Below are positions 1-14,474 of a stretch of DNA of 14,727 nucleotides, piece by piece (positions within the stretch are counted from its first letter, which is position 1; each line of letters opens with the position of its first letter). Under the pieces are notes generated by a model. The model saw only the letters and a program-made list of their open reading frames with translations. It searched no databases and was not told where the DNA came from. The DNA is from a virus (Duplodnaviria > Heunggongvirae > Uroviricota > Caudoviricetes): IMG/VR virus record IMGVR_UViG_2579778539_000002. The stretch is one strand, 5' to 3'. Made by a program: the position numbers and the translations under genes.

Positions 1-237
1 TACCGCAAACAGCTTGCCCTGCCGGATTTCAGTCCGTTGTCACAGGACAGACTCGCCATTCAGTTGATCCGCGAACGCGGTGCACTGGATGACATCCGGG
101 CGGGACGCATTGAGCGCGCCATTTCACGCTGTCGCAATATCTGGGCGTCCCTGCCGGGTGCCGGTTACGGTCAGCGTGAGCATTCACTGGAAAAACTGGT
201 CACCGTCTGGCGTACCGCCGGCGGCGTACCGGCTTAA
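1..237 (+). CDS. K: Endolysin (P2 gpK-like lysozyme), C-terminal fragment; 5' end lies outside the window
   Basis: Frame 1 is open from base 1 to TAA at 235-237. The C-terminal residues ...LPGAGYGQREHSLEKL... resemble the P2 K endolysin as I recall it. Position directly upstream of lysA fits P2 order. Confidence 0.7.
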   Translation, partial: YRKQLALPDFSPLSQDRLAIQLIRERGALDDIRAGRIERAISRCRNIWASLPGAGYGQREHSLEKLVTVWRTAGGVPA

Positions 238-251
238 ACGGAGTAAACACC

Positions 252-677
252 ATGAAGAAATTATCCCTTTCACTGATGCTGAACGTGTCGCTGGCGCTGA
301 TGCTGGCACTGTCCCTGATTTACCCGCAGAGCGTGGCCGTCAGTTTTGTCGCTGCCTGGGCGATTCTGGCGACGGTTATCTGTGTGGTTGCCGGCGGTGT
401 CGGCGTGTATGCCACTGAGTATGTACTGGAGCGCTACGGGCGGGAGCTGCCGCCGGAATCGCTGGCCGTGAAGATTGTCGCGTCGCTGTTTTTGCAGCTG
501 GTGCCGTGGCGCAGACGGGCGGTGGCTCTGGTAGTGATGGTGGCGACGTTTATCTCGCTGGTCGCTGCCGGGTGGATTTTTACCGCGCTGATTTATCTCG
601 TGGTATCGGTGTTCTTCCGGCTGATACGTACGGCCTGCCGTCAGCGTTTTGAGGGGCGGGAACCATGTCAAAGCTGA
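252..677 (+). CDS. lysA: LysA-like lysis accessory membrane protein (141 aa)
   Basis: ATG at 252 preceded by GGAG. Protein is very hydrophobic with several predicted transmembrane stretches. Length of 141 aa and position after K match P2 lysA. Confidence 0.6.
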   Translation: MKKLSLSLMLNVSLALMLALSLIYPQSVAVSFVAAWAILATVICVVAGGVGVYATEYVLERYGRELPPESLAVKIVASLFLQLVPWRRRAVALVVMVATFISLVAAGWIFTALIYLVVSVFFRLIRTACRQRFEGREPCQS

Positions 678-1090
678 TGATTGTGCTGGTCGTGTTGTTA
701 TCGCTGGCGGTGGCGGGTCTGTTTCTGGCGAAGCATGAAAACGCCCGCCTGCGCGCCTCGCTGGACAGGGCGAATAACGTCGCCAGTGAACAGCAGACGA
801 CCATCACCATGCTGAAAAATCAGCTTCATGTTGCCATCACCAGGGCAGACAAAAACGAGCTGGCGCAGGTGGCACTGCGTCAGGAACTGGAGAACGCCGC
901 GAAGCGTGAAGCACAGCGCGAGAAAACCATCACGAGGTTACTCAATGAAAACGAAGATTTTCGCCGCTGGTACGGCGCTGACCTGCCTGATGCTGTGCGC
1001 CGGTTGCACCAGCGCCCCGCCTGCACCGACGCCAGTGATTGTCCACAACGCCTGCCCGAAAGTGAGCCTTTGCCCGATGCCGGGCAGTGA
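665..1090 (+). CDS. lysB: LysB, Rz-like inner-membrane spanin (141 aa)
   Basis: N-terminal transmembrane segment (LMIVLVVLLSLAVAGLFLA) followed by a charged, probably coiled-coil region. Start overlaps the lysA end. Length matches P2 LysB. Confidence 0.65.
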   Translation: MSKLMIVLVVLLSLAVAGLFLAKHENARLRASLDRANNVASEQQTTITMLKNQLHVAITRADKNELAQVALRQELENAAKREAQREKTITRLLNENEDFRRWYGADLPDAVRRLHQRPACTDASDCPQRLPESEPLPDAGQ

Positions 1091-1235
1091 CCCGCAGAAG
1101 AACGGCGATTTAAGTGCCGATATCCGGCAGCTTGAGAACGCGCTGGCACGCTGTGCCAGCCAGGTAAAAATGATTAAACAGTGTCAGGACGAAAACGATG
1201 CTCAAACCCGACAGCCTGCGCAGGGCGCTGACTGA
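945..1235 (+). CDS. lysC: LysC, Rz1-like outer-membrane lipoprotein spanin (96 aa), starting inside lysB in another frame
   Basis: Internal ATG at 945 within six-frame ORF 828..1235. Signal peptide with lipobox LCAG|C, then a Pro-rich mature region. It runs 145 bp past the lysB stop, the overlapped spanin architecture. Length of 96 aa matches P2 LysC. Confidence 0.65.
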   Translation: MKTKIFAAGTALTCLMLCAGCTSAPPAPTPVIVHNACPKVSLCPMPGSDPQKNGDLSADIRQLENALARCASQVKMIKQCQDENDAQTRQPAQGAD

Positions 1236-1665
1236 TGCCGTCACGGTGCTGAAAACCAGTCCTGAGATGCTGCGGATATTCGTGGATAACGGGAGTATTG
1301 CCTCCACACTGGCGACGTCGCTGTCATTCGAAAAGCGTTACACGCTCAATGTCATTGTGACCGACTTTACCGGTGATTTTGATCTGCTCATTGTGCCGGT
1401 GCTGGCGTGGCTGCGGGAAAATCAGCCCGACATCATGACCACCGACGAAGGTCAGAAAAAGGGCTTCACGTTTTATGCAGACATCAACAATGACAGCAGC
1501 TTTGATATCAGCATCAGCCTGATGCTGACCGAGCGCACGCTGGTCAGTGAGGTGGACGGCGCGCTGCATGTGAAGAATATCCCGGAACCTCCGCCGCCGG
1601 AGCCGGTCACCCACCCGATGGAGCTTTATATCAATGGCGAACTGGTGAGTAAGTGGGATGAATGA
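1198..1665 (+). CDS. R: Tail completion protein gpR (155 aa)
   Basis: Length and position match P2 gpR. Start overlaps the lysC end and the stop overlaps the S start (ATGAATGA). Confidence 0.75.
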   Translation: MLKPDSLRRALTDAVTVLKTSPEMLRIFVDNGSIASTLATSLSFEKRYTLNVIVTDFTGDFDLLIVPVLAWLRENQPDIMTTDEGQKKGFTFYADINNDSSFDISISLMLTERTLVSEVDGALHVKNIPEPPPPEPVTHPMELYINGELVSKWDE

Positions 1666-2110
1666 GTTTAAGCGTTTTGAAGACAGGCTGACCGGACTTA
1701 TTGAGTCGCTGTCACCGTCAGGGCGTCGGCGACTGAGCGCCGAACTGGCGAAACGTCTGCGTCAGAGTCAGCAGCGTCGGGTGATGGCACAGAAAGCCCC
1801 GGACGGCACACCCTACGCACCACGCCAGCAGCAGAGCGCCAGAAAAAAGACCGGTCGCGTTAAGCGAAAAATGTTTGCGAAACTTATCACCAGTCGTTTT
1901 TTGCATATCCGCGCCAGCCCGGAACAGGCATCAATGGAGTTTTACGGCGGGAAGTCACCGAAAATCGCCAGCGTGCATCAGTTCGGTCTGTCGGAAGAAA
2001 ACCGAAAAGACGGTAAGAAAATTGATTATCCGGCGCGTCCTCTGCTCGGCTTTACCAGTGAGGATGTGCAGATGATTGAAGAGATTATCCTGGCTCACCT
2101 CGACCGTTAG
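1658..2110 (+). CDS. S: Tail completion protein gpS (150 aa)
   Basis: Length and position match P2 gpS. Translationally coupled to R. Confidence 0.75.
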   Translation: MNEFKRFEDRLTGLIESLSPSGRRRLSAELAKRLRQSQQRRVMAQKAPDGTPYAPRQQQSARKKTGRVKRKMFAKLITSRFLHIRASPEQASMEFYGGKSPKIASVHQFGLSEENRKDGKKIDYPARPLLGFTSEDVQMIEEIILAHLDR

Positions 2111-2142
2111 TTGTGCCATTCCTGACACCTCATCGTCACATT

Positions 2143-2164
2143 GCCGCCGGTATGACCCGGCGGC
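2143..2164 (+). other. GC-rich inverted repeat (8-bp stem GCCGCCGG/CCGGCGGC, 6-nt loop) in the S-V intergenic region
   Basis: Read directly from the sequence. No U-tract follows, so it is not a canonical intrinsic terminator. Function unknown. Confidence 0.4.
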
Positions 2165-2176
2165 ATCCTTCCCGTT

Positions 2177-2812
2177 ATGAACACTCTCGCAAATATTCAG
2201 GAACTCGCGCGCGCACTGCGCAACATGATTCGCACCGGCCTTGTCGTCGAAACCGACCTTAACGCCGGTCGCTGCCGTGTGCAGACCGGCGGCATGTGCA
2301 CCGACTGGCTTCAGTGGCTGACCTGTCGTGCCGGGCGTTCGCGCACATGGTGGGCACCTTCCGTGGGAGAGCAGGTGCTGATTCTGGCCGTGGGCGGTGA
2401 ACTCGACACTGCGTTCGTTCTGCCGGGGATTTATTCCGGCGATAACCCCGCGCCGTCGGCGTCGGCGGATGCCCTGCATATCCGTTTCCCTGACGGGGCG
2501 GTGATTGAGTATGAACCTGAAACCAGTGCACTCACGGTAAGCGGAATTAAAACGGCCAGCGTGACGGCTTCTGATTCTGTTACTGCCACGGTGCCGGTGG
2601 TCATGGTGAAAGCATCAACCCGCGTCACCCTGGACACACCGGAGGTGGTCTGCACCAACAGGCTGATTACCGGCACGCTGGAAGTGCAGAAGGGCGGGAC
2701 GATGCGCGGCAACATTGAACACACCGGCGGTGAACTTTCATCAAACGGTAAAGTACTGCATACCCATAAACACCCCGGCGACAGCGGCGGCAAAACCGGG
2801 AGTCCTCTATGA
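2177..2812 (+). CDS. V: Baseplate spike/assembly protein gpV (211 aa)
   Basis: Length matches P2 gpV and the N-terminus resembles it as I recall. First gene after the S-V gap. Confidence 0.8.
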   Translation: MNTLANIQELARALRNMIRTGLVVETDLNAGRCRVQTGGMCTDWLQWLTCRAGRSRTWWAPSVGEQVLILAVGGELDTAFVLPGIYSGDNPAPSASADALHIRFPDGAVIEYEPETSALTVSGIKTASVTASDSVTATVPVVMVKASTRVTLDTPEVVCTNRLITGTLEVQKGGTMRGNIEHTGGELSSNGKVLHTHKHPGDSGGKTGSPL

Positions 2813-3156
2813 CAGCGCGTTATCTCGGAATGAATCGCAGTGATGGCCTGACTGTCACTGACCTTGAGCATATCAGCCAGAGTATCGGCGATATCCTGCG
2901 CACACCGGTCGGCTCACGGGTGATGCGTCGTGATTACGGCTCGTTGCTGGCGTCAATGATTGACCAGCCGCAGACCCCGGCGCTTGAGTTGCAGATTAAG
3001 GTCGCCTGTTACATGGCCGTACTGAAATGGGAACCCCGCGTCACCCTGTCATCCGTCACCACGGCGCGCAGTTTTGACGGGCGAATGACGGTCACGTTAA
3101 CCGGTCAGCACAACGACACCGGCCAGCCACTTTCGTTAACCATCCCTGTGAGTTGA
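2809..3156 (+). CDS. W: Baseplate wedge protein gpW (gp25/GPW family, 115 aa)
   Basis: Length matches P2 gpW. Start overlaps the V stop (ATGA). Synteny V-W-J-I. Confidence 0.8.
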   Translation: MTARYLGMNRSDGLTVTDLEHISQSIGDILRTPVGSRVMRRDYGSLLASMIDQPQTPALELQIKVACYMAVLKWEPRVTLSSVTTARSFDGRMTVTLTGQHNDTGQPLSLTIPVS

Positions 3157-3160
3157 AACC

Positions 3161-4069
3161 ATGCCGATTATCGACCTGAACCAGCTACCCGCACCGGATG
3201 TGGTCGAGGAGCTGGACTTTGAAACCATTCTTGCCGAACGCAAGGCGACACTGATTTCCCTTTACCCGGAAGACCAGCAGGAGGCGGTTGCCCGTACCCT
3301 GACGCTGGAATCCGAGCCTCTCGTCAAACTGCTGGAGGAAAATGCTTATCGTGAGCTTATCTGGCGTCAGCGTGTGAATGAGGCCGCACGGGCGGTAATG
3401 CTGGCCTGTGCCGCCGGTAATGACCTTGATGTGATTGGTGCCAATTACAACACCACGCGCCTGATTATCACCCCGGCAGATGATTCGACTATCCCGCCGA
3501 CACCGGCAGTGATGGAGTCTGACACCGATTATCGTCTGCGTATTCAGCAGGCGTTTGAGGGCTTAAGCGTCGCCGGGTCGGTGGGAGCCTATCAGTATCA
3601 TGGTCGCAGTGCCGACGGGCGTGTCGCGGATATCTCTGTCACCAGTCCGTCTCCGGCCTGCGTCACCATCTCTGTGCTGTCACGTGAAAATAACGGTGTC
3701 GCATCCGAAGACCTGCTGGCCGTGGTGCGTAACGCCCTTAATGGCGAGGACGTCAGGCCGGTGGCCGACCGCGTGACCGTGCAGTCTGCCGCCATCGTTG
3801 AATACCAGATAAACGCCACGCTGTATCTTTACCCTGGTCCCGAAAGCGAACCCATTCGCGCTGCCGCCGTGAAAAAACTGGAAGCGTATATCACGGCACA
3901 GCACCGGCTGGGGCGCGACATCCGTCTGTCTGCCATTTATGCCGCTTTGCATGTGGAAGGCGTGCAGCGTGTCGAACTGACTGCACCTCTGGCTGACATC
4001 GTGCTCAACAATACGCAGGCGTCTTTCTGTACTGAATACCGCGTCGTGACCGGAGGCTCGGATGAGTGA
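3161..4069 (+). CDS. J: Baseplate protein gpJ (302 aa)
   Basis: Length matches P2 gpJ. Synteny. Confidence 0.8.
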   Translation: MPIIDLNQLPAPDVVEELDFETILAERKATLISLYPEDQQEAVARTLTLESEPLVKLLEENAYRELIWRQRVNEAARAVMLACAAGNDLDVIGANYNTTRLIITPADDSTIPPTPAVMESDTDYRLRIQQAFEGLSVAGSVGAYQYHGRSADGRVADISVTSPSPACVTISVLSRENNGVASEDLLAVVRNALNGEDVRPVADRVTVQSAAIVEYQINATLYLYPGPESEPIRAAAVKKLEAYITAQHRLGRDIRLSAIYAALHVEGVQRVELTAPLADIVLNNTQASFCTEYRVVTGGSDE

Positions 4070-4673
4070 TTCGCGACTGCTGCCGACCGGCTCATCACCG
4101 CTTGAAGTCGCCGCCGCAAAAGCCTGTGCGGAAATTGAAAAAACGCCGGTCAGTATTCGTGAGCTGTGGAACCCGGATACCTGTCCGGCAAATCTGCTGC
4201 CGTGGCTGGCGTGGTCATTTTCGGTCGACAGGTGGGATGATAAATGGCCGGAAGCGACCAAACGCGCTGTTATCCGCGATGCGTATTTCATTCACTGCCA
4301 TAAGGGCACTATTGGTGCGATTCGCCGTGTGGTGGAGCCGCTCGGCTATCTGATTGAGGTGAGGGAGTGGTGGCAACTCAACGAGGAGCCGGGGACGTTC
4401 CGTATCGTTGTTGGCGTGCTTGAGCAGGGTATTACCGAGGAAATGTATCAGGAGCTGGAGCGCCTCGTTGCTGATGCAAAACCGGCAAGCCGCCATCTGA
4501 CGGGACTGGCTATCAGTTTAAGTACAACCGGCAACATTTTTGCCGGTGCGGGATGCTATCACGGCGACGCCCTGACGGTTTATCCCTACACCCCGGAGGC
4601 CATTATTGTCGGAGGGGATTATTTCCCGGCCTCGGCCATTCATTTAATTGATAACCTGAGAGTAAACGCATGA
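4062..4673 (+). CDS. I: Baseplate protein gpI (203 aa)
   Basis: Position between J and H; start overlaps the J stop. Longer than the ~176 aa I recall for P2 gpI (unverified). Confidence 0.7.
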   Translation: MSDSRLLPTGSSPLEVAAAKACAEIEKTPVSIRELWNPDTCPANLLPWLAWSFSVDRWDDKWPEATKRAVIRDAYFIHCHKGTIGAIRRVVEPLGYLIEVREWWQLNEEPGTFRIVVGVLEQGITEEMYQELERLVADAKPASRHLTGLAISLSTTGNIFAGAGCYHGDALTVYPYTPEAIIVGGDYFPASAIHLIDNLRVNA

Positions 4674-5992
4674 CAGTGAAATACTACGCCATTCTGACTA
4701 ATCAGGGCGCAGCACGGCTGGCTAACGCGACGATGCTCGGCAGTAAGCTGAATCTGACGCAAATGGCCGTTGGTGATGCGAATGGTGTCTTGCCGACACC
4801 AGACCCGGCACAGACAAAACTGATTAACCAGAAACGCATCGCGCCGCTGAATCTTCTGAGTGTTGACCCGAACAACCAGAGCCAGATTATTGCGGAGCAA
4901 ATCATCCCTGAGAACGAGGGCGGATTCTGGATCCGTGAGATTGGGCTTTATGATGATGAAGGCGTACTCATTGCGGTGGCGAACTGCCCGGAAACGTACA
5001 AACCGCAGTTGCAGGAAGGCAGTGGTCGTACCCAGACTATCCGCATGATTCTGGTTGTCACGAATACCGAAGCTATCACGCTGAAAATCGACCCGTCGGT
5101 GGTACTGGCGACCCGTAAATACGTGGATGATGAAGTCCTGGAATTAAGGCTGTATGTGGATGACCAGATGAGAAACCACATTGCCGCACAGGATCCTCAT
5201 ACACAGTATGCGCAGAAACATAATCCGACATTTACCGGAGAACCAAAAGCGCCGACGCCTGCCGCAGGAAATAACACCACGCGGATTGCGACCACTGCGT
5301 TTGTTCAGGCCGCTATTACCGCTCTGATTAACGGTGCGCCAGCCACGCTGGACACACTGAAAGAAATTGCCGCAGCCATTAACAATGACCCGAAATTCAG
5401 CACCACCATTAACAATGCGCTGTCAGGTAAGCAGCCACTGGATGAGACGCTGACTCATTTGAGTGGAAAGGATGTAGCTGGTCTTCTCGCATACCTTGGT
5501 TTGGGAGAAGGCTCTGCATTACCGGTTGGTGTGCCTGTTCCGTGGCCTTCAGCCACTCCGCCAACAGGCTGGCTGAAATGCAATGGTGCGGCTTTTTCTG
5601 CTGAAGAATACCCGGAACTGGCAAAGGCTTACCCGACCAATAAATTGCCTGATTTACGTGGTGAGTTTATTCGTGGCTGGGATGATGAACGTGGTGTGGA
5701 TAGTGGGCGAACTCTGCTTTCATCGCAAGGAGATGCTATTCGAAACATTACTGGCGGTTTTGGTCAGTTGCGCGTAAACAGCGAAATTAATGCAATTGTC
5801 GATGTTCAAAGTGTGAGTGGGGCTTTTTACGGAGGTACCTCAGTCCGGAATAACATCAATGTGTCTATGACATACGCTAATGACCGAAAAATCCGACAAG
5901 ATGTTCACTTCTCGGCGGCAAATGTTGTTCCAACAGCAAATGAAAATCGTCCACGTAACATCGCCTTTAATTATATTGTGAGGGCTGCATGA
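4670..5992 (+). CDS. H: Tail fibre protein H (440 aa): constant N-terminal part (aa 1 to ~280) fused to the currently expressed variable C-terminal part, with a recombination site inside the gene
   Basis: N-terminus resembles the P2 H / Mu S fibre N-terminal domain. C-terminal part carries a phage tail-collar-like motif (WLKCNGAAFSAEEYPELAKAYP...LPDLRGEFIRGWDDERGVD). Start overlaps the I stop (ATGA). The 26-bp hix-like site at 5484..5509 is in frame. Confidence 0.85.
   Translation: MTVKYYAILTNQGAARLANATMLGSKLNLTQMAVGDANGVLPTPDPAQTKLINQKRIAPLNLLSVDPNNQSQIIAEQIIPENEGGFWIREIGLYDDEGVLIAVANCPETYKPQLQEGSGRTQTIRMILVVTNTEAITLKIDPSVVLATRKYVDDEVLELRLYVDDQMRNHIAAQDPHTQYAQKHNPTFTGEPKAPTPAAGNNTTRIATTAFVQAAITALINGAPATLDTLKEIAAAINNDPKFSTTINNALSGKQPLDETLTHLSGKDVAGLLAYLGLGEGSALPVGVPVPWPSATPPTGWLKCNGAAFSAEEYPELAKAYPTNKLPDLRGEFIRGWDDERGVDSGRTLLSSQGDAIRNITGGFGQLRVNSEINAIVDVQSVSGAFYGGTSVRNNINVSMTYANDRKIRQDVHFSAANVVPTANENRPRNIAFNYIVRAA
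5484..5509. repeat. Left recombination site, hix/gix-like 26-bp element (TTCTCGCATACC-TT-GGTTTGGGAGAA), inside H
   Basis: The 15 bp at 5496..5510 (TTGGTTTGGGAGAAG) are a perfect inverted repeat of 7389..7403. Overall form is two 12-bp half-sites around a central dinucleotide, similar to hixL as recalled (TTCTTGAAAACC-AA-GGTTTTTGATAA). Confidence 0.6.
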
Positions 5993-6594
5993 TGAATAAA
6001 GCTGTATTAAATAGTGAACTCATTGCCATAAAAGCGGGAGACATTATCATTTATAATTATGATGGTGAAACGCGTGAATATATTTCTACATCAACTGAAT
6101 GTCTCGCTGTCGGCGTCGGTATCCCGGCATGTTCTTGTTTAGATGCACCAGTTACACATAAAGCTGGTTATGCAATCTGCCGTTCTGCAGATTTTAACTC
6201 ATGGGAATATGTGCCAGACCATCGCGGTGAAATCATCTATAGCACCGAAACAGGAGAATCGAAAGAAATCACAGCTCCGGGTGATTACCCTGAAAATACA
6301 ACCACTATCGCCCCGTTAACGCCATATGATAAATGGGATGGTGAGAAATGGGTGACGGATACTGAGGCACAGCATAGTGCCGCAGTAGACGCGGCAGAAG
6401 CACAGCGCCAGTCACTGATTGATGCAGCAATGGCTTCCATTAGTCTGATTCAGCTGAAATTACAGGCCGGACGGAAGTTGACGCAGGCAGAAACAACCAG
6501 ACTTAACGCTGTGCTGGATTACATTGACGCGGTGACGGCAACAGATACCAGCACCGCGCCGGATGTCATCTGGCCTGAACTGCCGGAGGCGTAG
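5989..6594 (+). CDS. G: Tail fibre assembly protein G (201 aa), partner of the currently expressed H variable part
   Basis: Start overlaps the H stop (ATGATGA). C-terminus has the tail fibre assembly motif (LDYIDAV...DTSTAPDVIWPELP). Longer than the 175 aa I recall for P2 G. Confidence 0.75.
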   Translation: MMNKAVLNSELIAIKAGDIIIYNYDGETREYISTSTECLAVGVGIPACSCLDAPVTHKAGYAICRSADFNSWEYVPDHRGEIIYSTETGESKEITAPGDYPENTTTIAPLTPYDKWDGEKWVTDTEAQHSAAVDAAEAQRQSLIDAAMASISLIQLKLQAGRKLTQAETTRLNAVLDYIDAVTATDTSTAPDVIWPELPEA

Positions 6595-7018
6595 GCCATT
6601 CAATATCTGGCGCACCGGAAGTATCGACCAGCACCAGTGCGTCCAGATAATCCAGCCACAAATTATATTGCGCCAGTTCGTCATCTTTCAGACGACCAAT
6701 AGCGGCTTTACCGGGCCATTGCTTACTGTTCATGTATTCGTTGGCCTGGTTAATTAGTAGCTGTCTTTCTGATTCAGTAATTTCAATAAGCTCTTCATGC
6801 GTGGGTGGAGGAATATCTGCCCACGCAGGCATCCCATCATCTCCGGCAATACGGATTTTTCCTTGTGGCGGTTCAGCCATAAACTCACTGATAATATTTT
6901 GATTCACCTCCTTTGCATCTGATAAATCCCATCCCTCTGATTTATATTTATCAATCATATCCACAGGGAAAAAAGCATTATGCCTTGCGCTATAAACATA
7001 TTCGTTCATATAAATCAC
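6566..7018 (-). CDS. Alternative tail fibre assembly protein (G', 150 aa) in the silent orientation
   Basis: C-terminus (LWLDYLDALVLVDTSGAPDIEWPTPP) parallels the G C-terminal motif. Sits directly downstream of the alternative fibre segment on the minus strand. Its 3' end overlaps the G 3' end by 29 bp. Confidence 0.65.
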   Translation of the reverse strand: MIYMNEYVYSARHNAFFPVDMIDKYKSEGWDLSDAKEVNQNIISEFMAEPPQGKIRIAGDDGMPAWADIPPPTHEELIEITESERQLLINQANEYMNSKQWPGKAAIGRLKDDELAQYNLWLDYLDALVLVDTSGAPDIEWPTPPAVQAR

Positions 7019-7029
7019 CCTGAATAAAA

Positions 7030-7443
7030 TTACTCACCAACAGCCCACCAACTGTAATTCATCGATACTGTGGAACTGGTTGATGCAGTTCTGTAAGCGG
7101 AATTAAAACCGGTTAATGTTGGGCCTTCTGCAGTCATCATGAACCCTCGCCCAGCACCTAAAGGCGCACCACCATCACCAGAATGAGTAAGCATGGCGCA
7201 GTCCACTTTTTTAGGAAAAGGGATGCTGAATGTAATTCTCATTGTTTGCGTCGATAATGTCGGCGTAACCGCACCACGACCATATTGCAGGATTTTCCCG
7301 TTGGGTAATTTCATCCATCCATCACCACTGGCAAAAGAGGCCATGTCCGGTATCTGATTTTCCCCTGTCCCCACATCCCGTTTTGCCGCTTCTCCCAAAC
7401 CAACGTTTATGAAAATGCAGAGATAACGGGCAACTGGCATCAT
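7030..7443 (-). CDS. Alternative tail fibre variable C-terminal segment (H'v); no promoter of its own expected, would fuse to the H constant part after inversion
   Basis: Minus-strand ORF reads through the right recombination site. Residues GLGE at aa 15-18 are encoded by the inverted repeat in the same frame as GLGE (aa 277-280) of H. The ATG at 7441-7443 lies outside the segment and may not be a real start. Confidence 0.6.
   Translation of the reverse strand: MMPVARYLCIFINVGLGEAAKRDVGTGENQIPDMASFASGDGWMKLPNGKILQYGRGAVTPTLSTQTMRITFSIPFPKKVDCAMLTHSGDGGAPLGAGRGFMMTAEGPTLTGFNSAYRTASTSSTVSMNYSWWAVGE
7390..7415. repeat. Right recombination site, hix/gix-like 26-bp element (TTCTCCCAAACC-AA-CGTTTATGAAAA)
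   Basis: Contains the reverse complement of the 15-bp core in H. Central dinucleotide AA is the complement of TT in the left site, as inversion requires. Lies 55 bp upstream of the invertase start. Confidence 0.6.
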
Positions 7444-7470
7444 CTCCGGTTTTTATTCAGGGGGATGCTC

Positions 7471-8064
7471 ATGCTTATTGGCTATGTACGCGTGTCAACA
7501 AATGACCAGAACACGGAATTGCAGCGTAACGCGCTGGAGTGCGCAGGATGCGAGCGGATTTTTGAGGATAAAATCAGCGGCACGAAGTCCGACCGACCGG
7601 GACTGAAAAAACTGCTCAGAACATTATCAGCAGGTGACACTCTGGTAGTCTGGAAGCTGGACCGGCTGGGGCGTAGTATGCGGCATCTGGTCATTCTGGT
7701 TGAGGAGCTGCGCGAACGCGGCGTTAATTTTCGCAGCCTGACAGATGCTATTGATACCAGCACGCCGATGGGGCGTTTTTTCTTTCATGTGATGGGTGCC
7801 CTGGCTGAAATGGAGCGAGAACTCATTGTCGAGCGGACACGCGCTGGACTGGAAGCGGCCAGAGCCAAAGGGCGTATTGGTGGCAGACGTCCGAAGCTCA
7901 CCGCGAGTGAGTGGGAGCAGGCCGGGCGGTTGCTGGCTGCGGGGGAATCTCGTCAACGTGTGGCGCTGATTTTTGATATTGGCCTGTCCACGCTCTATAA
8001 AAAATTCCCCTCATCAGCGACAAAGAATAAATTGTGTCATCCCTTAGCCAACCGGGACAAATAG
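7471..8064 (+). CDS. Serine site-specific DNA invertase, Gin/Cin/Pin/Hin family (197 aa from ATG 7471; in-frame ATG at 7465 would add 2 aa)
   Basis: N-terminus MLIGYVRVSTNDQNTELQRNAL carries the catalytic-serine motif (Ser9) typical of small serine recombinases and is near-identical to Gin/Pin as recalled. C-terminal HTH-like region (GLSTLYKKFP). AGGGGG Shine-Dalgarno 6 nt before 7471. Confidence 0.9.
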   Translation: MLIGYVRVSTNDQNTELQRNALECAGCERIFEDKISGTKSDRPGLKKLLRTLSAGDTLVVWKLDRLGRSMRHLVILVEELRERGVNFRSLTDAIDTSTPMGRFFFHVMGALAEMERELIVERTRAGLEAARAKGRIGGRRPKLTASEWEQAGRLLAAGESRQRVALIFDIGLSTLYKKFPSSATKNKLCHPLANRDK

Positions 8065-8123
8065 CCTGACATCTCCGGCACAACTGAAAATACCACTCAC
8101 CCATTAACCACGGAGTTAAACGG

Positions 8124-9314
8124 ATGAGTGACTATCATCACGGCGTGCAGGTGCTGGAGATTAACGACGGCACCCGCGTCATTTCCACCGTATCCACTGC
8201 CATTGTCGGCATGGTCTGCACGGCCAGCGATGCGGATGCGGAAACCTTCCCCCTCAATAAACCTGTGCTGATTACCAATGTGCAGAGCGCAATTGCAAAG
8301 GCCGGTAAAAAAGGCACGCTGGCAGCATCGTTGCAGGCCATCGCTGACCAGTCAAAACCGGTCACCGTTGTCGTGCGTGTGGAAGACGGCACCGGCGACG
8401 ACGAAGAAACGAAACTCGCGCAGACCGTTTCCAATATCATCGGCACCACCGACGAAAACGGTCAGTACACCGGACTGAAAGCCCTGCTGGCGGCGGAGTC
8501 GGTTACCGGTGTTAAACCGCGTATTCTTGGTGTGCCGGGACTGGACACCAAAGAGGTGGCGGTTGCACTGGCATCCGTCTGTCAGAAGCTGCGCGCTTTC
8601 GGGTATATCAGCGCATGGGGCTGTAAAACCATTTCCGAGGTGAAAGCCTACCGCCAGAATTTCAGCCAGCGTGAGCTGATGGTCATCTGGCCGGATTTCC
8701 TCGCATGGGATACGGTCACCAGTACCACCGCCACCGCGTATGCCACCGCCCGTGCGCTGGGTCTGCGTGCCAAAATCGACCAGGAGCAGGGCTGGCATAA
8801 AACGCTGTCCAACGTCGGGGTGAACGGTGTTACCGGCATCAGCGCATCTGTATTCTGGGATTTGCAGGAGTCCGGCACCGATGCTGACCTGCTTAACGAG
8901 TCAGGCGTCACAACGCTGATTCGCCGTGACGGTTTCCGCTTCTGGGGTAACCGTACCTGCTCTGATGACCCGCTGTTCCTCTTTGAAAACTACACCCGCA
9001 CCGCGCAGGTGCTGGCCGACACGATGGCTGAGGCGCATATGTGGGCGGTGGACAAGCCTATCACCGCAACGCTGATTCGCGACATCGTTGACGGCATCAA
9101 TGCCAAATTCCGTGAGCTGAAAACAAACGGTTATATCGTGGATGCGACCTGCTGGTTCAGCGAAGAATCCAACGATGCGGAAACCCTTAAGGCCGGAAAA
9201 CTGTATATCGACTACGACTATACCCCGGTGCCTCCTCTTGAAAACCTGACCCTGCGCCAGCGTATTACCGATAAATACCTGGCAAATCTGGTCACCTCGG
9301 TTAACAGCAATTAA
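8124..9314 (+). CDS. FI: Contractile tail sheath protein FI (396 aa)
   Basis: Length matches P2 FI. GGAG RBS. Followed by the tube gene. Confidence 0.9.
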   Translation: MSDYHHGVQVLEINDGTRVISTVSTAIVGMVCTASDADAETFPLNKPVLITNVQSAIAKAGKKGTLAASLQAIADQSKPVTVVVRVEDGTGDDEETKLAQTVSNIIGTTDENGQYTGLKALLAAESVTGVKPRILGVPGLDTKEVAVALASVCQKLRAFGYISAWGCKTISEVKAYRQNFSQRELMVIWPDFLAWDTVTSTTATAYATARALGLRAKIDQEQGWHKTLSNVGVNGVTGISASVFWDLQESGTDADLLNESGVTTLIRRDGFRFWGNRTCSDDPLFLFENYTRTAQVLADTMAEAHMWAVDKPITATLIRDIVDGINAKFRELKTNGYIVDATCWFSEESNDAETLKAGKLYIDYDYTPVPPLENLTLRQRITDKYLANLVTSVNSN

Positions 9315-9326
9315 GGAGCCTGACCG

Positions 9327-9845
9327 ATGGCAATGCCGCGCAAACTCAAGTTAATGAACGTCTTTCTGAACGGCTACAGCTATCAGGGCGTTGCAAAGTC
9401 CGTCACGCTGCCAAAACTGACCCGTAAGCTCGAAAACTATCGCGGTGCGGGGATGAACGGCAGCGCACCGGTAGACCTCGGCCTTGATGACGATGCGCTG
9501 TCAATGGAGTGGTCGCTCGGGGGCTTCCCGGATTCGGTTATCTGGGAGCTTTACGCCGCAACCGGCGTGGATGCCGTGCCGATTCGTTTTGCAGGCTCTT
9601 ACCAGCGCGACGATACCGGCGAAACGGTGGCCGTCGAAGTGGTCATGCGTGGACGTCAGAAAGAAATCGACACCGGCGAGGGCAAACAGGGAGAAGACAC
9701 CGAGTCGAAAATCTCCGTGGTCTGCACCTATTTCCGGCTGACGATGGACGGTAAGGAGCTGGTCGAAATTGACACCATCAACATGATTGAAAAGGTGAAC
9801 GGCGTCGACCGGCTGGAGCAACACCGCCGCAATATCGGCCTGTGA
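9327..9845 (+). CDS. FII: Tail tube protein FII (172 aa)
   Basis: Length matches P2 FII. AAGGAG RBS at 9313-9318. Synteny. Confidence 0.85.
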   Translation: MAMPRKLKLMNVFLNGYSYQGVAKSVTLPKLTRKLENYRGAGMNGSAPVDLGLDDDALSMEWSLGGFPDSVIWELYAATGVDAVPIRFAGSYQRDDTGETVAVEVVMRGRQKEIDTGEGKQGEDTESKISVVCTYFRLTMDGKELVEIDTINMIEKVNGVDRLEQHRRNIGL

Positions 9846-9850
9846 TTTTC

Positions 9851-9871
9851 ATCCGGTCAGCCTGGCTGGCC
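9851..9871 (+). other. GC-rich hairpin (CCGGTCAGCC / GGCTGGCCGG arms) immediately after the FII stop
   Basis: Near-perfect inverted repeat read from the sequence. Only TT follows, so it is at best a weak or partial terminator or an RNA-stability element. Confidence 0.35.
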
Positions 9872-9901
9872 GGTTAACCCTGATTCAGAAGTGAGAAAAC
9901 C

Positions 9902-10177
9902 ATGAACAAAGAAAATGTCATTACCCTGGACAATCCGGTCAAACGTGGTGAGCAGGTTATCGAACAGGTCACGCTGATGAAACCCAATGCCGGGACGCTA
10001 CGCGGTGTCAGTCTGGCTGCGGTTGCAAACTCCGAAGTCGATGCACTGATTAAGGTGCTGCCGCGCATGACGGCACCGATGCTGACCGAGCAGGAAGTCG
10101 CCGCGCTGGAACTGCCTGACCTTGTGGCGCTGGCCGGTAAGGTGGTCGGTTTTTTGTCGCCGAACTCGGTGCAGTGA
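9902..10177 (+). CDS. E: Tail assembly chaperone gpE (91 aa)
   Basis: Length matches P2 gpE. Lies between tube and tape measure, the conserved chaperone position. Confidence 0.75.
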   Translation: MNKENVITLDNPVKRGEQVIEQVTLMKPNAGTLRGVSLAAVANSEVDALIKVLPRMTAPMLTEQEVAALELPDLVALAGKVVGFLSPNSVQ

Positions 10178-10329
10178 CGTTTCCAAAAAATCTCTCGGTC
10201 GATGACCTGATGGCGGATGTGGCAGTGATATTTCACTGGCCGCCATCAGAACTGTATCCCATGAGCCTGACCGAACTCATCACATGGCGCGAAAAGGCGC
10301 TCCGGCGAAGCGGAAACACGAATGAGTAA
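9902..10329 (+). CDS. E+E' fusion made by programmed -1 frameshift (about 143 aa)
   Basis: Heptamer T_TTT_TTG at 10150..10156 is in the correct phase of the E frame. The -1 frame is open from there to TAA at 10327-10329, overlapping the T start. Confidence 0.6.
10150..10156 (+). promoter_or_regulatory. -1 ribosomal frameshift slippery heptamer T_TTT_TTG for E/E'
   Basis: X_XXY_YYZ pattern in the E zero frame, 7 codons before the E stop. Conserved tail chaperone frameshift arrangement. Confidence 0.6.
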
Positions 10330-12769
10330 CAATGTAAAATTACAGGTATTGCTCAGGGCTGTTGACCAGGCATCCCGCCCGTTTAAATCCATCCGCACAG
10401 CGAGTAAGTCGCTGTCGGGGGATATCCGGGAAACACAAAAATCACTGCGCGAGCTGAACGGTCACGCATCCCGTATTGAGGGATTCCGCAAGACCAGTGC
10501 ACAGCTCGCCGTGACTGGTCATGCACTTGAAAAGGCACGGCAGGAGGCCGAAGCCCTTGCCACACAGTTTAAAAACACCGAACGTCCGACCCGTGCTCAG
10601 GCGAAAGTGCTGGAATCAGCAAAGCGAGCGGCGGAGGACTTACAGGCGAAATATAACCGCCTGACGGATTCCGTTAAACGCCAGCAGCGGGAACTGGCCG
10701 CTGTGGGAATTAATACCCGCAATCTTGCACATGATGAGCAGGGGCTGAAAAACCGTATCAGTGAAACCACCGCACAGCTTAATCGTCAGCGCGACGCACT
10801 GGCGCGTGTCAGTGCGCAACAGGCAAAACTTAACGCAGTAAAACAGCGTTATCAGGCCGGAAAGGAACTGGCCGGAAATATGGCCTCAGTGGGCGCTGCC
10901 GGTGTGGGGATTGCGGCGGCGGGAACGATGGCCGGAGTTAAGCTGCTGATGCCAGGTTATGAGTTTGCGCAGAAAAACTCAGAATTGCAGGCCGTGCTAG
11001 GAGTGGCAAAAGACTCCGCCGAAATGACCGCACTCCGCAAGCAGGCGCGCCAGCTCGGCGACAATACCGCAGCCTCGGCGGATGATGCGGCCGGTGCGCA
11101 GATTATTATTGCGAAAGCCGGTGGGGATGTTGATGCCATTCAGGCGGCAACGCCGGTCACGCTGAACATGGCGCTGGCGAACCGCCGCACGATGGAAGAA
11201 AACGCCGCCCTGCTGATGGGGATGAAATCCGCCTTTCAGCTTTCAAACGATAAGGTCGCTCATATCGGGGATGTTCTCTCCATGACGATGAACAAAACCG
11301 CCGCCGATTTTGACGGCATGAGCGATGCGCTGACCTATGCCGCACCTGTGGCAAAAAATGCCGGTGTCAGCATTGAAGAAACCGCCGCAATGGTCGGGGC
11401 GCTGCATGATGCAAAAATCACAGGCTCAATGGCGGGGACGGGAAGCCGTGCCGTGTTAAGCCGCCTGCAGGCACCGACGGGAAAAGCATGGGATGCACTC
11501 AAAGAGCTTGGAGTGAAAACCTCAGACAGCAAGGGAAACACCCGGCCAATATTTACCATTCTGAAAGAAATGCAGGCCAGTTTTGAGAAAAACCGGCTCG
11601 GTACTGCCCAGCAGGCTGAATACATGAAAACTATTTTCGGGGAGGAGGCCAGCTCAGCCGCCGCCGTGCTGATGACTGCCGCCTCAACCGGAAAGCTGGA
11701 CAAACTGACCGCTGCGTTTAAAGCCTCAGACGGGAAGACCGCCGAGCTGGTAAATATCATGCAGGACAACCTAGGCGGTGACTTTAAAGAGTTTCAGTCC
11801 GCTTATGAGGCAGTGGGGACTGACCTGTTTGACCAGCAGGAAGGCGCGCTGCGTAAGCTCACGCAGACGGCCACAAAGTATGTGTTAAAACTCGACGGCT
11901 GGATCAAGAAAAACAAATCACTGGCGTCAACCATCGGCCTCATTGTCGGTGGTGCACTGGCGCTTATTGGCATCATCGGTGCCATTGGTCTTGTCGCCTG
12001 GCCGGTTATCACCGGCATCAATGCCATCATCGCGGCAGCAGGCGCAATGGGGGCAGTCTTCACGACGGTTGGCAGTGCTGTTATGACCGCCATCGGGGCT
12101 ATTAGCTGGCCGGTTGTGGCCGTGGTGGCCGCAATTGTCGCCGGGGCGTTGCTTATCCGTAAATACTGGGAGCCTGTCAGCGCATTCTTTGGCGGTGTGG
12201 TTGAAGGGCTGAAAGTGGCATTTGCGCCGGTGGGGGAACTGTTCACGCCACTTAAGCCGGTGTTTGACTGGCTGGGTGAAAAGTTACAGGCCGCGTGGCA
12301 GTGGTTTAAAAACCTGATTGCCCCGGTCAAAGCCACTCAGGACACCCTGAACCGTTGCCGTGACACGGGGGTCATGTTCGGGCAGGCACTGGCTGACGCG
12401 CTGATGCTGCCGCTTAATGCGTTCAACAAACTGCGCAGTGGTATTGACTGGGTACTGGAAAAACTCGGTGTTATCAACAAAGAGTCAGACACACTTGACC
12501 AGACCGCCGCCAGAACTCAAGCCGCCACGTATGGCAGCGGTGGTTATATTCCGGCGACCAGCTCTTATGCAGGCTATCAGGCTTATCAGCCGGTCACGGC
12601 ACCGGCTGGCCGCTCTTATGTGGACCAGAGTAAAAACGAATATCACATCAGCCTGACGGGTGGCACTGCGCCGGGGACACAGCTTGACCGCCAGTTACAG
12701 GATGCGCTCGAAAAATACGAGCGGGATAAACGTGCGCGCGCTCGTGCCAGCATGATGCATGACGGTTAA
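10322..12769 (+). CDS. T: Tail tape measure protein T (815 aa)
   Basis: Length matches P2 gpT. Long coiled-coil-like N-terminal part, Gly/Ala-rich hydrophobic segment near aa 540-600, position after E/E'. Confidence 0.9.
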   Translation: MSNNVKLQVLLRAVDQASRPFKSIRTASKSLSGDIRETQKSLRELNGHASRIEGFRKTSAQLAVTGHALEKARQEAEALATQFKNTERPTRAQAKVLESAKRAAEDLQAKYNRLTDSVKRQQRELAAVGINTRNLAHDEQGLKNRISETTAQLNRQRDALARVSAQQAKLNAVKQRYQAGKELAGNMASVGAAGVGIAAAGTMAGVKLLMPGYEFAQKNSELQAVLGVAKDSAEMTALRKQARQLGDNTAASADDAAGAQIIIAKAGGDVDAIQAATPVTLNMALANRRTMEENAALLMGMKSAFQLSNDKVAHIGDVLSMTMNKTAADFDGMSDALTYAAPVAKNAGVSIEETAAMVGALHDAKITGSMAGTGSRAVLSRLQAPTGKAWDALKELGVKTSDSKGNTRPIFTILKEMQASFEKNRLGTAQQAEYMKTIFGEEASSAAAVLMTAASTGKLDKLTAAFKASDGKTAELVNIMQDNLGGDFKEFQSAYEAVGTDLFDQQEGALRKLTQTATKYVLKLDGWIKKNKSLASTIGLIVGGALALIGIIGAIGLVAWPVITGINAIIAAAGAMGAVFTTVGSAVMTAIGAISWPVVAVVAAIVAGALLIRKYWEPVSAFFGGVVEGLKVAFAPVGELFTPLKPVFDWLGEKLQAAWQWFKNLIAPVKATQDTLNRCRDTGVMFGQALADALMLPLNAFNKLRSGIDWVLEKLGVINKESDTLDQTAARTQAATYGSGGYIPATSSYAGYQAYQPVTAPAGRSYVDQSKNEYHISLTGGTAPGTQLDRQLQDALEKYERDKRARARASMMHDG

Positions 12770-12783
12770 GGAGGTGACGAAAA

Positions 12784-13263
12784 ATGATGCTCGCGTTAGG
12801 TATGTTTGTTTTTATGCGCCAGACGCTGCCACACCAGACCATGCAGCGTGAATCAGATTATCGCTGGCCGTCAAATTCCCGTATCGGTAAACGGGACGCT
12901 TTTCAGTTTCTCGGTGTGGGTGAGGAAAACATCACGCTGGCCGGTGTGCTTTATCCCGAACTGACCGGCGGCAAGCTGACGATGACCACGCTCAGGCTGA
13001 TGGCAGAGGAGGGGCGGGCGTGGCCGTTGCTGGATGGCACCGGCATGATTTACGGCATGTATGTCATCAGCAGGGTGAGTGAAACAGGGAGTATTTTCTT
13101 TGCAGACGGCACACCCCGGAAAATTGATTTTACGCTGTCACTCACCCGCGTTGATGAATCACTGGCCGCGCTTTATGGCGATATCGGTAAACAGGCGGAA
13201 TCGCTCATCGGTAAGGCCGGCAGTATGGCGACCAGATTCACAGGTATGACGGGGGCGGGATAA
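12784..13263 (+). CDS. U: Tail protein gpU (159 aa)
   Basis: Length matches P2 gpU. AGGAGG RBS at 12769-12774. Synteny. Confidence 0.8.
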   Translation: MMLALGMFVFMRQTLPHQTMQRESDYRWPSNSRIGKRDAFQFLGVGEENITLAGVLYPELTGGKLTMTTLRLMAEEGRAWPLLDGTGMIYGMYVISRVSETGSIFFADGTPRKIDFTLSLTRVDESLAALYGDIGKQAESLIGKAGSMATRFTGMTGAG

Positions 13264-14426
13264 TGCTGGATGCGCTGACATTTGATGCAGGCAGTACGCT
13301 GACGCCGGATTACATGCTGATGCTCGACAGCAGGGATATTACCGGCAATATCAGCGACCGTCTGATGAGCATGACCCTGACGGATAACCGGGGCTTTGAG
13401 GCTGACCAGCTTGATATTGAACTGAACGATGCCGACGGGCAGGTCGGGCTGCCGGTTCGTGGCGCTGTCCTGACGGTGTATATCGGCTGGAAAGGTTTTG
13501 CCCTGGTATGCAAAGGGAAATTTACCGTTGATGAGGTTGAACACCGGGGCGCACCGGATGTAGTCACCATCCGCGCCCGGAGTGCAGATTTTCGCGGGAC
13601 GCTCAATTCCCGCCGGGAAGGCTCCTGGCATGACACCACGCTCGGTGCGATTGTTAAGGCGATAGCCACCCGTAACAGGCTGGAAGCCAGTGTCGCTCCG
13701 TCACTGGCCGGAATAAAAATTCCACACATCGACCAGTCGCAGGAGTCTGATGCGAAATTCCTGACCCGTCTTGCAGAACGCAACGGCGGTGAGGTGTCGG
13801 TAAAAATGGGAAAACTGTTGTTTCTCAAAGCGGGGCAGGGAGTGACGGCCAGCGGTAAAAAAATCCCGCAGGTCACCATAACCCGCAGCGACGGCGACCG
13901 CCATCATTTTGCGATTGCTGACCGTGGAGCCTACACCGGTGTAACGGCAAAATGGCTACACACTAAAGACCCGAAGCCGCAAAAGCAGAAGGTAAAACTG
14001 AAACGCAAAAAGAAAGAGAAACACCTGCGCGCACTGGAGCACCCGAAAGCGAAACCGGTCAGGCAGAAGAAAGCGCCAAAAGTACCGGAAGCGCGCGAAG
14101 GTGAATACATGGCCGGTGAGGCTGACAACGTTTTTGCCCTGACCACGGTATATGCCACGAAAGCGCAGGCCATGCGCGCCGCTCAGGCGAAGTGGGATAA
14201 ACTGCAACGGGGTGTGGCGGAGTTCTCCATCAGCCTGGCTACCGGTCGGGCAGATATTTACACGGAAACACCGGTCAAAGTGTCAGGCTTTAAGCGTGTC
14301 ATAGACGAGCAGGACTGGACAATCACTAAGGTGACACATTTTCTGAATAATAGCGGCTTCACGACGTCCTTAGAGCTTGAGGTAAGGCTTTCTGATGTGG
14401 AGTACGAAACCGAAGATGATGAGTGA
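13263..14426 (+). CDS. D: Tail protein gpD (387 aa)
   Basis: Length matches P2 gpD. Start overlaps the U stop (TAATG). Lys-rich linker in the middle. Confidence 0.8.
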   Translation: MLDALTFDAGSTLTPDYMLMLDSRDITGNISDRLMSMTLTDNRGFEADQLDIELNDADGQVGLPVRGAVLTVYIGWKGFALVCKGKFTVDEVEHRGAPDVVTIRARSADFRGTLNSRREGSWHDTTLGAIVKAIATRNRLEASVAPSLAGIKIPHIDQSQESDAKFLTRLAERNGGEVSVKMGKLLFLKAGQGVTASGKKIPQVTITRSDGDRHHFAIADRGAYTGVTAKWLHTKDPKPQKQKVKLKRKKKEKHLRALEHPKAKPVRQKKAPKVPEAREGEYMAGEADNVFALTTVYATKAQAMRAAQAKWDKLQRGVAEFSISLATGRADIYTETPVKVSGFKRVIDEQDWTITKVTHFLNNSGFTTSLELEVRLSDVEYETEDDE

Positions 14427-14445
14427 TGTGTTTTATTTTATCTGT

Positions 14446-14474
14446 TTGTTTTATAAGGATAAATTAACTAAAAT
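14446..14474 (+). promoter_or_regulatory. Candidate sigma70 promoter for ogr (-35 TTGTTT, 17-bp spacer, -10 TAAAAT)
   Basis: Read by eye in the AT-rich D-ogr gap. ogr is known to have its own promoter in P2. Not verified. Confidence 0.25.

Follow-up and report, generated by a model that had tools for sequence, protein, structure and literature searches.

In phage Mu, the constant S part lies outside the invertible G segment, the alternative modules Sv-U and U'-Sv' lie inside it, and the invertase gene stands immediately to its right. The P segment of the element e14 pairs stfP-tfaP with tfaE-stfE and is accompanied by pinE, and the Salmonella P2-like prophages Fels-2 and SopE-phi carry a related invertase (Fin). 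Johnson and Simon reportedly described the sequences at which such enzymes act, in 1985, as '26 bp recombination sites'. Here we analyse a stretch of Caudoviricetes DNA of 14,727 nucleotides (nt), IMG/VR record IMGVR_UViG_2579778539_000002, in which an inverted repeat encloses the end of a tail-fibre gene, and a serine invertase gene lies just beyond it. We refer to this whole stretch as the window. The overall best explanation of the locus, and one we hold with high confidence, is that a Pin/Gin-type inversion switch swaps the fibre tip together with its chaperone in a P2-like Escherichia coli prophage.

Precedents for such switching exist in closely related elements. Co-existing orientations have been found by sequencing in two P2-like prophages of enteropathogenic E. 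coli (EPEC) and in e14, the latter with confirmation by polymerase chain reaction (PCR) (Goldberg et al., 2014; PMC4272514). In addition, the Z/fun hotspot of P2 often harbours a DNA invertase, together with inversion of neighbouring genes (2024 preprint; bioRxiv 10.1101/2024.10.15.618418).

Crossover sites, fibre modules and invertase

The features of the locus are listed below, with positions counted from the first letter of the window, lengths in base pairs (bp), nt or amino acids (aa), and Pfam matches with their E-values (E).

5496-7403: invertible segment, 1908 bp, bounded by a perfect 15-bp inverted repeat (5496-5510 / 7389-7403)
5484-5509: left crossover site, TTCTCGCATACC-TT-GGTTTGGGAGAA, inside gene H; two 12-bp half-sites and a 2-bp core (5496-5497)
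7390-7415: right crossover site, TTCTCCCAAACC-AA-CGTTTATGAAAA, core 7402-7403; 55 nt upstream of the invertase start
4670-5992, + strand: gene H in its present form, 440 aa, with codons 281-440 inside the segment
4670-5495, + strand: constant N-terminal part of H, codons 1-275 plus the site-encoded LGLGE; PF12571 Phage_tail_fib, E=2.6e-62
5510-5992, + strand: tip A, the C-terminal 160 aa of H, a StfE-like tail-collar end; PF07484 Collar, E=3e-15; the currently expressed end
5989-6594, + strand: chaperone A (TfaE-like); PF02413 Caudo_TAP, E=1.8e-32; currently co-expressed with tip A
6566-7009, - strand: chaperone B (TfaP-like); PF02413 Caudo_TAP, E=2.1e-30; silent in the present orientation
7030-7389, - strand: tip B, an alternative 119-aa fibre end lacking a start of its own inside the segment; PF21882 Gp53-like_C, E=2.7e-13
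7471-8064, + strand: Pin/Gin-family serine DNA invertase, 197 aa; Resolvase PF00239, E=8.3e-53, and HTH_7 PF02796, E=1.1e-12
7492-7555, inside the invertase gene: candidate recombinational enhancer with two putative G-N13-C Fis-type cores (7492-7506 and 7541-7555)

The segment is delimited by two exact copies of TTGGTTTGGGAGAAG, one on the + strand at 5496-5510 and the other on the - strand at 7389-7403, with 0 mismatches between them. No further copy is present in the window when up to 2 mismatches are allowed. The pair is far from a chance occurrence, given an expectation of 0.02 hits and the fact that 0 of 200 dinucleotide-preserving shuffles contain two copies. A repeat finder lengthens the arms imperfectly to 27 nt at 81% complementarity, which leaves 1878 nt between them. 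Specifically, each 15-bp arm corresponds to the core plus the inner half-site of a 26-bp imperfect dyad, and the AA core of the right site reads TT on the other strand, such that it matches the left core and the two sites are inverted. A third crossover site is absent from the entire window, even when 3 mismatches in the half-site or 7 in the 26-mer are tolerated. Two inverted 26-bp dyad sites with matching 2-bp cores are what is expected of the Din family of invertases.

An earlier reading of the sequence (the original prediction) had proposed a perfect 15-bp inverted repeat bracketing approximately 1.9 kb, and both arms are indeed found exactly where it placed them, beyond what the 200 shuffles produce, with a measured segment length of 1908 bp. 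Its placement of the invertase '55 bp' outside the right repeat is correct when the distance is counted from the end of the 26-bp site (7415) to the ATG at 7471, but not when it is counted from the end of the 15-bp repeat (7403), which gives 67 nt. Another in-frame ATG located upstream, at 7465, is 61 nt from the end of the 15-bp repeat.

The left site lies inside the fibre gene and is in frame with both possible ends of that gene, whereas the constant part and the presumed promoter are outside the segment. Because the repeat encodes L-G-L-G-E in the identical codon phase in H and in the open reading frame (ORF) of the - strand tip, flipping 5496-7403 in silico yields an uninterrupted H of 399 aa whose last 119 residues are the gp53-like tip. 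This same 399-aa H::tip-B ORF is intact in the naturally flipped 98-3133, EC4115 and pro483. The segment itself holds two convergent modules on opposite strands, each composed of a tip and a Caudo_TAP chaperone. The two tips fall in different Pfam families (Collar versus Gp53-like_C), and neither matches the fibres of Mu, e14 or P2, with the exception of tip A, which is 59% identical to e14 StfE. Chaperone A shares 92.5% identity with e14 TfaE, and chaperone B shares 53% with e14 TfaP.

These Pfam assignments agree with the predicted contents of the segment, namely the C-terminus of H and an assembly gene on the + strand, and a second assembly gene and fibre end on the - strand. The names 'H' and 'G' given to the + strand genes are apt as labels for positional equivalents of the P2 genes, but not as a claim of close orthology: between the constant part of H and P2 H the identity is only ~42%, and chaperone A yields no BLASTP hit to P2 G.

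Two further observations concern the - strand genes. The convergent chaperone genes overlap by 29 bp (6566-6594), where the 'W-P-x-x-P' C-terminal ends are encoded on opposite strands, and this overlap is shared by TW14359 and by the tfaP/tfaE genes of e14. A mechanically called ORF on the - strand (7030-7443) extends tip B to ATG codons that are located beyond the segment, between the right site and the start of the invertase gene (7404-7443). There a GGAG abuts the ATG, which is a poor spacing for a ribosome-binding site, and e14 stfE has the same sort of spurious N-terminus. The extra N-terminus is probably not translated, though databases give a 136-aa protein.

The enzyme encoded to the right of the segment is a close relative of well-characterized invertases, as had been proposed. 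Its start at ATG 7471 is supported by homology. Residues 1-182 give a gapless alignment to the crystal structures of Mu Gin (3UJ3, 4M6F; E=1.1e-94), and the identity of the enzyme is 85.3% to PinE and 77.5% to Gin. The original prediction would have been undermined by an inactivated catalytic motif, but the catalytic set (R7, the nucleophilic S9, R42, D64, R65 and R68) is entirely present and is the same as that of Gin in the alignment. The deposited hyperactive Gin chains carry M114V, and the window invertase is wild type at that position. Residues specific to invertases that depend on Fis and an enhancer are Hin K47, R/K48, K/R51, Q151, R154 and L155 (McLean et al.; PMC3798978). The positions that make Fis/enhancer contacts are kept in the window invertase as K46, K47, R50 and the EQAGRLL motif, identical to Gin. 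Overall, a small serine recombinase of the ~190-aa class, with a catalytic domain followed by a C-terminal helix-turn-helix, is the enzyme architecture of the Din family.

The last codons of the invertase gene (…KLCHPLANRDK*, 8034-8064) are encoded by P2-backbone DNA, ahead of the sheath gene FI, which starts at 8124. From 8044 onwards the DNA is again 98% identical to P2, and this point falls inside the site annotated for binding of the Ogr activator at the pF late promoter. Thus, the last ~7 invertase codons are P2 promoter sequence, and the invertase gene ends within the promoter of the sheath operon. The left TTGTG element of the pF activator site is kept, with its spacing unchanged.

Both orientations among related prophages

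Evidence that the segment inverts comes from the comparison of natural genomes. All complete E. coli genomes were searched with window positions 4670-8120 as the query, either in native form or flipped in silico, and a genome was counted when it was collinear with at least 80% of the query. By this measure, 74 genomes are collinear with the native query, and the flipped construct has 67. The original prediction had named comparison with assemblies of related prophages as a check, and this comparison bears it out, in that both orientations are about equally common among near-identical prophages and the inversion breakpoints always fall within the 15-bp repeat. The constant part of H remains collinear in related genomes of both orientation states. 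When junction probes of 500 nt are used, the junction between the constant part of H and tip A is detected in 340 genomes, and the junction with tip B in 75. In O157:H7, the two orientations are similarly frequent. Phage pro483, which has been isolated, shows the flipped arrangement and has a fibre gene of 399 aa.

Two comparisons are particularly instructive. The O157:H16 strain 98-3133 matches the flipped construct at 99.9% over its full length. Relative to the window, its flanks are collinear to 5510 and from 7389, with 5496-7406 inverted at 99.8%, and its invertase is 100% identical to that of the window. The second comparison involves the O157:H7 strains TW14359 and EC4115, both from the spinach outbreak of 2006. 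Here the flanks of 6841 and 6732 bp are 100% identical and occupy the same chromosomal position, and only the 1908-bp segment is flipped. Literature searches returned no explicit description of this TW14359/EC4115 flip. The left site (5484-5509) is the same in TW14359, EC4115 and 98-3133. Evidence that the segment inverts, and that both orientations occur naturally, is as strong as comparative evidence can be. Together with in-frame sites, two opposed tip-chaperone modules and an intact invertase beside the right site, these sequence comparisons agree with the predicted architecture of the Mu G, P1 C and e14 P type.

The arrangement is also widespread among viral contigs. A scan with the invertase returned >600 matching stretches, and the sites were surveyed in the best 79 of them. 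Among these best 79 relatives, the proximal site hardly varies (core AA, at a distance of 54-55 nt from the ATG), and the sequence of the window's right site is its commonest form. A single inverted partner site is found 1.1-3.4 kb upstream in 59 of the 79, mostly at 1.6-2.0 kb, and by this sequence survey the 1.9-kb segment of the window is typical in size.

These observations matter for how such prophages are annotated. In the flipped genomes of 98-3133 and EC4115, the NCBI pipeline labels H a pseudogene ('incomplete; missing C-terminus') and calls a separate 'gp53-like domain-containing protein'. Judged from the sequences, the pseudogene label is an annotation artefact of an invertible fusion gene, because the H::tip-B ORF is intact at 399 aa. 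Two forms of the fibre gene are legitimate in such prophages, and consequently host-range predictions and prophage-completeness calls made from a single assembly can be wrong. Similarly, the difference in orientation between TW14359 and EC4115 represents a switch state rather than an evolutionary event, and should be masked in comparative analyses and in those of single-nucleotide polymorphisms. On the practical side, exchange of fibre tips is being used to re-target delivery vectors based on P2/P4 (PMC9942202), and natural tip and chaperone cassettes constitute ready-made parts for such re-targeting.

Proposed mechanism and alternative explanations

We hypothesize that dimers of the invertase bind the inverted sites at 5484-5509 and 7390-7415. 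By analogy with Gin, Hin and Cin, the sites would then probably be brought together at an enhancer bound by Fis, within the 5' portion of the invertase gene, to form an invertasome on supercoiled DNA. The enzyme would cut both strands at the TT/AA cores with a 2-bp stagger, and rotation of its subunits would then invert the 1908-bp segment. The late V-W-J-I-H operon would be read only rightwards (+ strand), from a putative promoter upstream of V. Because of this one-way transcription, and because the site is in frame with both ends, each orientation should express one tip and its chaperone and silence the other pair. In one orientation, residues 1-280 of H would be joined to tip A (collar, 440 aa) and accompanied by chaperone A, and in the other orientation the same residues would be joined to tip B (gp53-like, 399 aa) and accompanied by chaperone B. 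A population of lysogens might thereby release two kinds of virion with different receptor-binding tips, a form of host-range bet-hedging.

The enhancer in this scheme is a candidate only. In the Din family, the enhancer is said to reside inside the invertase gene, as Kahmann in 1985 and Johnson and Simon in the same year are understood to have reported. The two G-N13-C cores in the window are 49 bp apart, and their positions are conserved in the window, e14 pin and Mu gin. The enhancer-homologous DNA has 84.6% identity with pin and 72.6% with gin. In a set of 65 distinct relatives, the invertase gene shows its lowest synonymous diversity at the 5' end, where codons 8-29 rank 6th lowest of 159 blocks, a dip that is confounded by translation-start constraints and possible mosaicism. 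By analogy with the characterized systems, inversion here would be expected to depend on Fis and an enhancer.

Several points weigh against a working switch of this kind in the window. Between the right site and the ATG, no sigma-70 consensus promoter for the invertase was detected. Scans of 5300-8300 for sigma-70 and terminator consensus sequences perform no better than on shuffles, and they reveal no convincing terminator downstream of the gene for chaperone A. Scanning for the degenerate Fis core motif yields several pairs at 46-50 bp spacing, such that the search does not discriminate by itself. Pairwise Fisher tests of synonymous sites against Mu and e14 are not significant. In addition, we infer the current switching of this copy from the sequences of its relatives, and likewise infer that the two tips recognise different receptors.

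Some of these points might favor a frozen switch, in which the architecture has been inherited but this copy no longer inverts to any meaningful extent, for example with the invertase unexpressed in the lysogen, leaving a tip-A phage with a silent relic module. The lack of a detected consensus promoter upstream of the invertase fits this possibility, as does the fact that a single assembly can show only one orientation, and the relic-like gix site in P2 H (described below) indicates that such switches can decay. We nevertheless consider a frozen switch improbable. Neither site is damaged, and the two are exact matches to those of prophages distinguished only by the flip. The invertase is the same protein, residue for residue, as that of the oppositely oriented 98-3133, the ORFs of tip B and chaperone B are intact and match Pfam strongly, and O157:H7 presents each orientation with similar frequency. 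A different origin for the orientation polymorphism, through RecA-dependent recombination between the repeats or through assembly error rather than the invertase, is given very little credence. Although inverted repeats can mediate inversions, the perfect repeat here is only 15 bp; efficient RecA recombination needs roughly 25 bp or more. Moreover, the repeats belong to canonical 26-bp Din sites, and the gene for a dedicated recombinase begins 55 nt from one of them, an arrangement present in 59 of the 79 relatives surveyed. Assemblies of mixed populations do choose an orientation arbitrarily, but such an arbitrary choice by the assembler itself implies a mixed, switching population, and mixed populations have been demonstrated by sequencing, for e14 also by PCR (PMC4272514).

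Equally hard to credit is a multi-site system resembling a shufflon, with more than two fibre ends. One EPEC P2-like prophage does have three inverted repeats and three alternative C-termini (PMC4272514), but a shufflon has more than two sites and the tyrosine recombinase Rci, whereas the window has two sites, even under the relaxed mismatch limits given above (3 for the half-site, 7 for the 26-mer), just two tip-chaperone modules, and a serine invertase. An inversion switch of the Pin/Gin type, exchanging one tip and chaperone for another, therefore remains by far our preferred explanation. More speculative, and in our judgment rather unlikely, is the further proposal that tip B, given its 97.5% identity to a tip of a Citrobacter braakii phage, targets another genus or a receptor other than lipopolysaccharide, and that the invertase may act in trans on the switches of co-resident prophages and thus couple their fibre states. 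Action in trans is conceivable because the crossover sites are identical or nearly identical to those of e14 and many other prophages. If true, a wider-host tip B and trans action would extend the known behavior of the Din family rather than define a new kind of system.

Phage context and relation to known systems

The sequence identifies the window as the late region, with the lysis and tail genes, of a P2-like E. coli prophage (Peduovirus). Over its whole length, it matches a prophage of E. coli 65COLEC at 99.3% identity, and positions 1-4498 and 8044-14473 share 95-98% nucleotide identity with canonical P2 (NC_001895). The genes follow the P2 order for this region, reading lysA, lysB/C, R, S, V, W, J, I, H, tfa, [tfa', tip'], invertase, FI, FII, E/E', T, U and D, and the annotations of near-identical prophages agree. 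Homology to P2 breaks off within gene I at 4498 and returns at 8044, and thus the block that comprises the end of I, H, G and the moron (4499-8043) has been exchanged as a unit. P2 orf30, located between S and V, is absent from the window (2112-2177).

The tips themselves have relatives in quite different phages. Tip A and chaperone A (5490-6646) have ~93% nucleotide identity to the side-tail-fibre region of the lambdoid phage HK106. Tip B (7030-7389) is 97.5% identical to the tips of pro483 and of the Citrobacter braakii phage Omnitron, and its first 43 residues recur at 97.7% identity in phi80 and mEp237. Because tip A resembles HK106 and tip B resembles Omnitron, phi80 and mEp237, these sequence matches indicate that tip cassettes are exchanged horizontally across unrelated phage types and genera. 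The centre of tip A (5703-5935) has no DNA-level alignment to the TW14359 or pro483 alleles, although both sides of it align. This pattern suggests that the expressed tip contains a mosaic sub-module, which may be the region that actually contacts the receptor.

Canonical P2 lacks both the invertase and the alternative module. It has a single longer H (669 aa) and G, and its G-FI interval contains a terminator and the fun(Z) moron. The H gene of P2 does carry, at approximately 13857 of its record, the sequence TTATCGAATATCTCGGTTTACAGGAA, which differs at 4 of 26 positions from Mu gixL, TTATCCAAAACCTCGGTTTACAGGAA. This resembles a relic crossover site and suggests, from the sequence, that the P2 fibre gene descended from an invertible one.

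Mu uses the same logic as the window, and its gixL and gixR sites have the same layout of 12+2+12 bp. However, the Mu segment is 3 kb rather than 1.9 kb, and its core is TC/GA, not TT/AA. At E<=1e-3, BLASTP shows no similarity between the fibre tips and chaperones of the window and those of Mu, and Mu, as a transposable myovirus, is a different type of phage.

In sequence terms, the closest relative of the switch is the e14 Pin system. The right crossover site of the e14 P segment is identical to that of the window, and its left site has three differences, all at outer-half positions. Both elements have the same 29-bp overlap of their chaperone genes, and the gap from site to ATG is 54 nt in e14 and Mu compared with 55 nt in the window. 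The two systems also differ in several respects. e14 is a defective lambdoid element, whereas the cassette of the window resides in an apparently complete P2-type contractile-tail operon. Moreover, the gp53-like tip B has no detectable similarity to e14 StfP, and relative to PinE, the window invertase has a C-terminal extension of 13 residues into the P2 pF promoter region.

The same cassette is present in other P2-like phages, including Escherichia phage pro483 (KR073661), the 'Escherichia phage P2' of O157:H43 T22 (KC618326) and the prophage of TW14359/EC4115. In all of these, the order I-H-tfa / tfa'-tip' - invertase - FI is found at 93-97% nucleotide identity, and a 'DNA invertase' is annotated. 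Relative to the window, pro483 and EC4115 are in the flipped state. The pro483, T22 and O157:H7 copies differ only allelically, by 3-6 amino acid changes in the invertase and a partly different centre of tip A. An invertible fibre switch in P2-like phages is already known, deposited, annotated and published; it is not new here, because annotated P2-like phages carry the cassette and inversion has been published for P2-like prophages. This copy leaves the current understanding of the inversion mechanism unchanged, and its value lies mainly in annotation and practical use.

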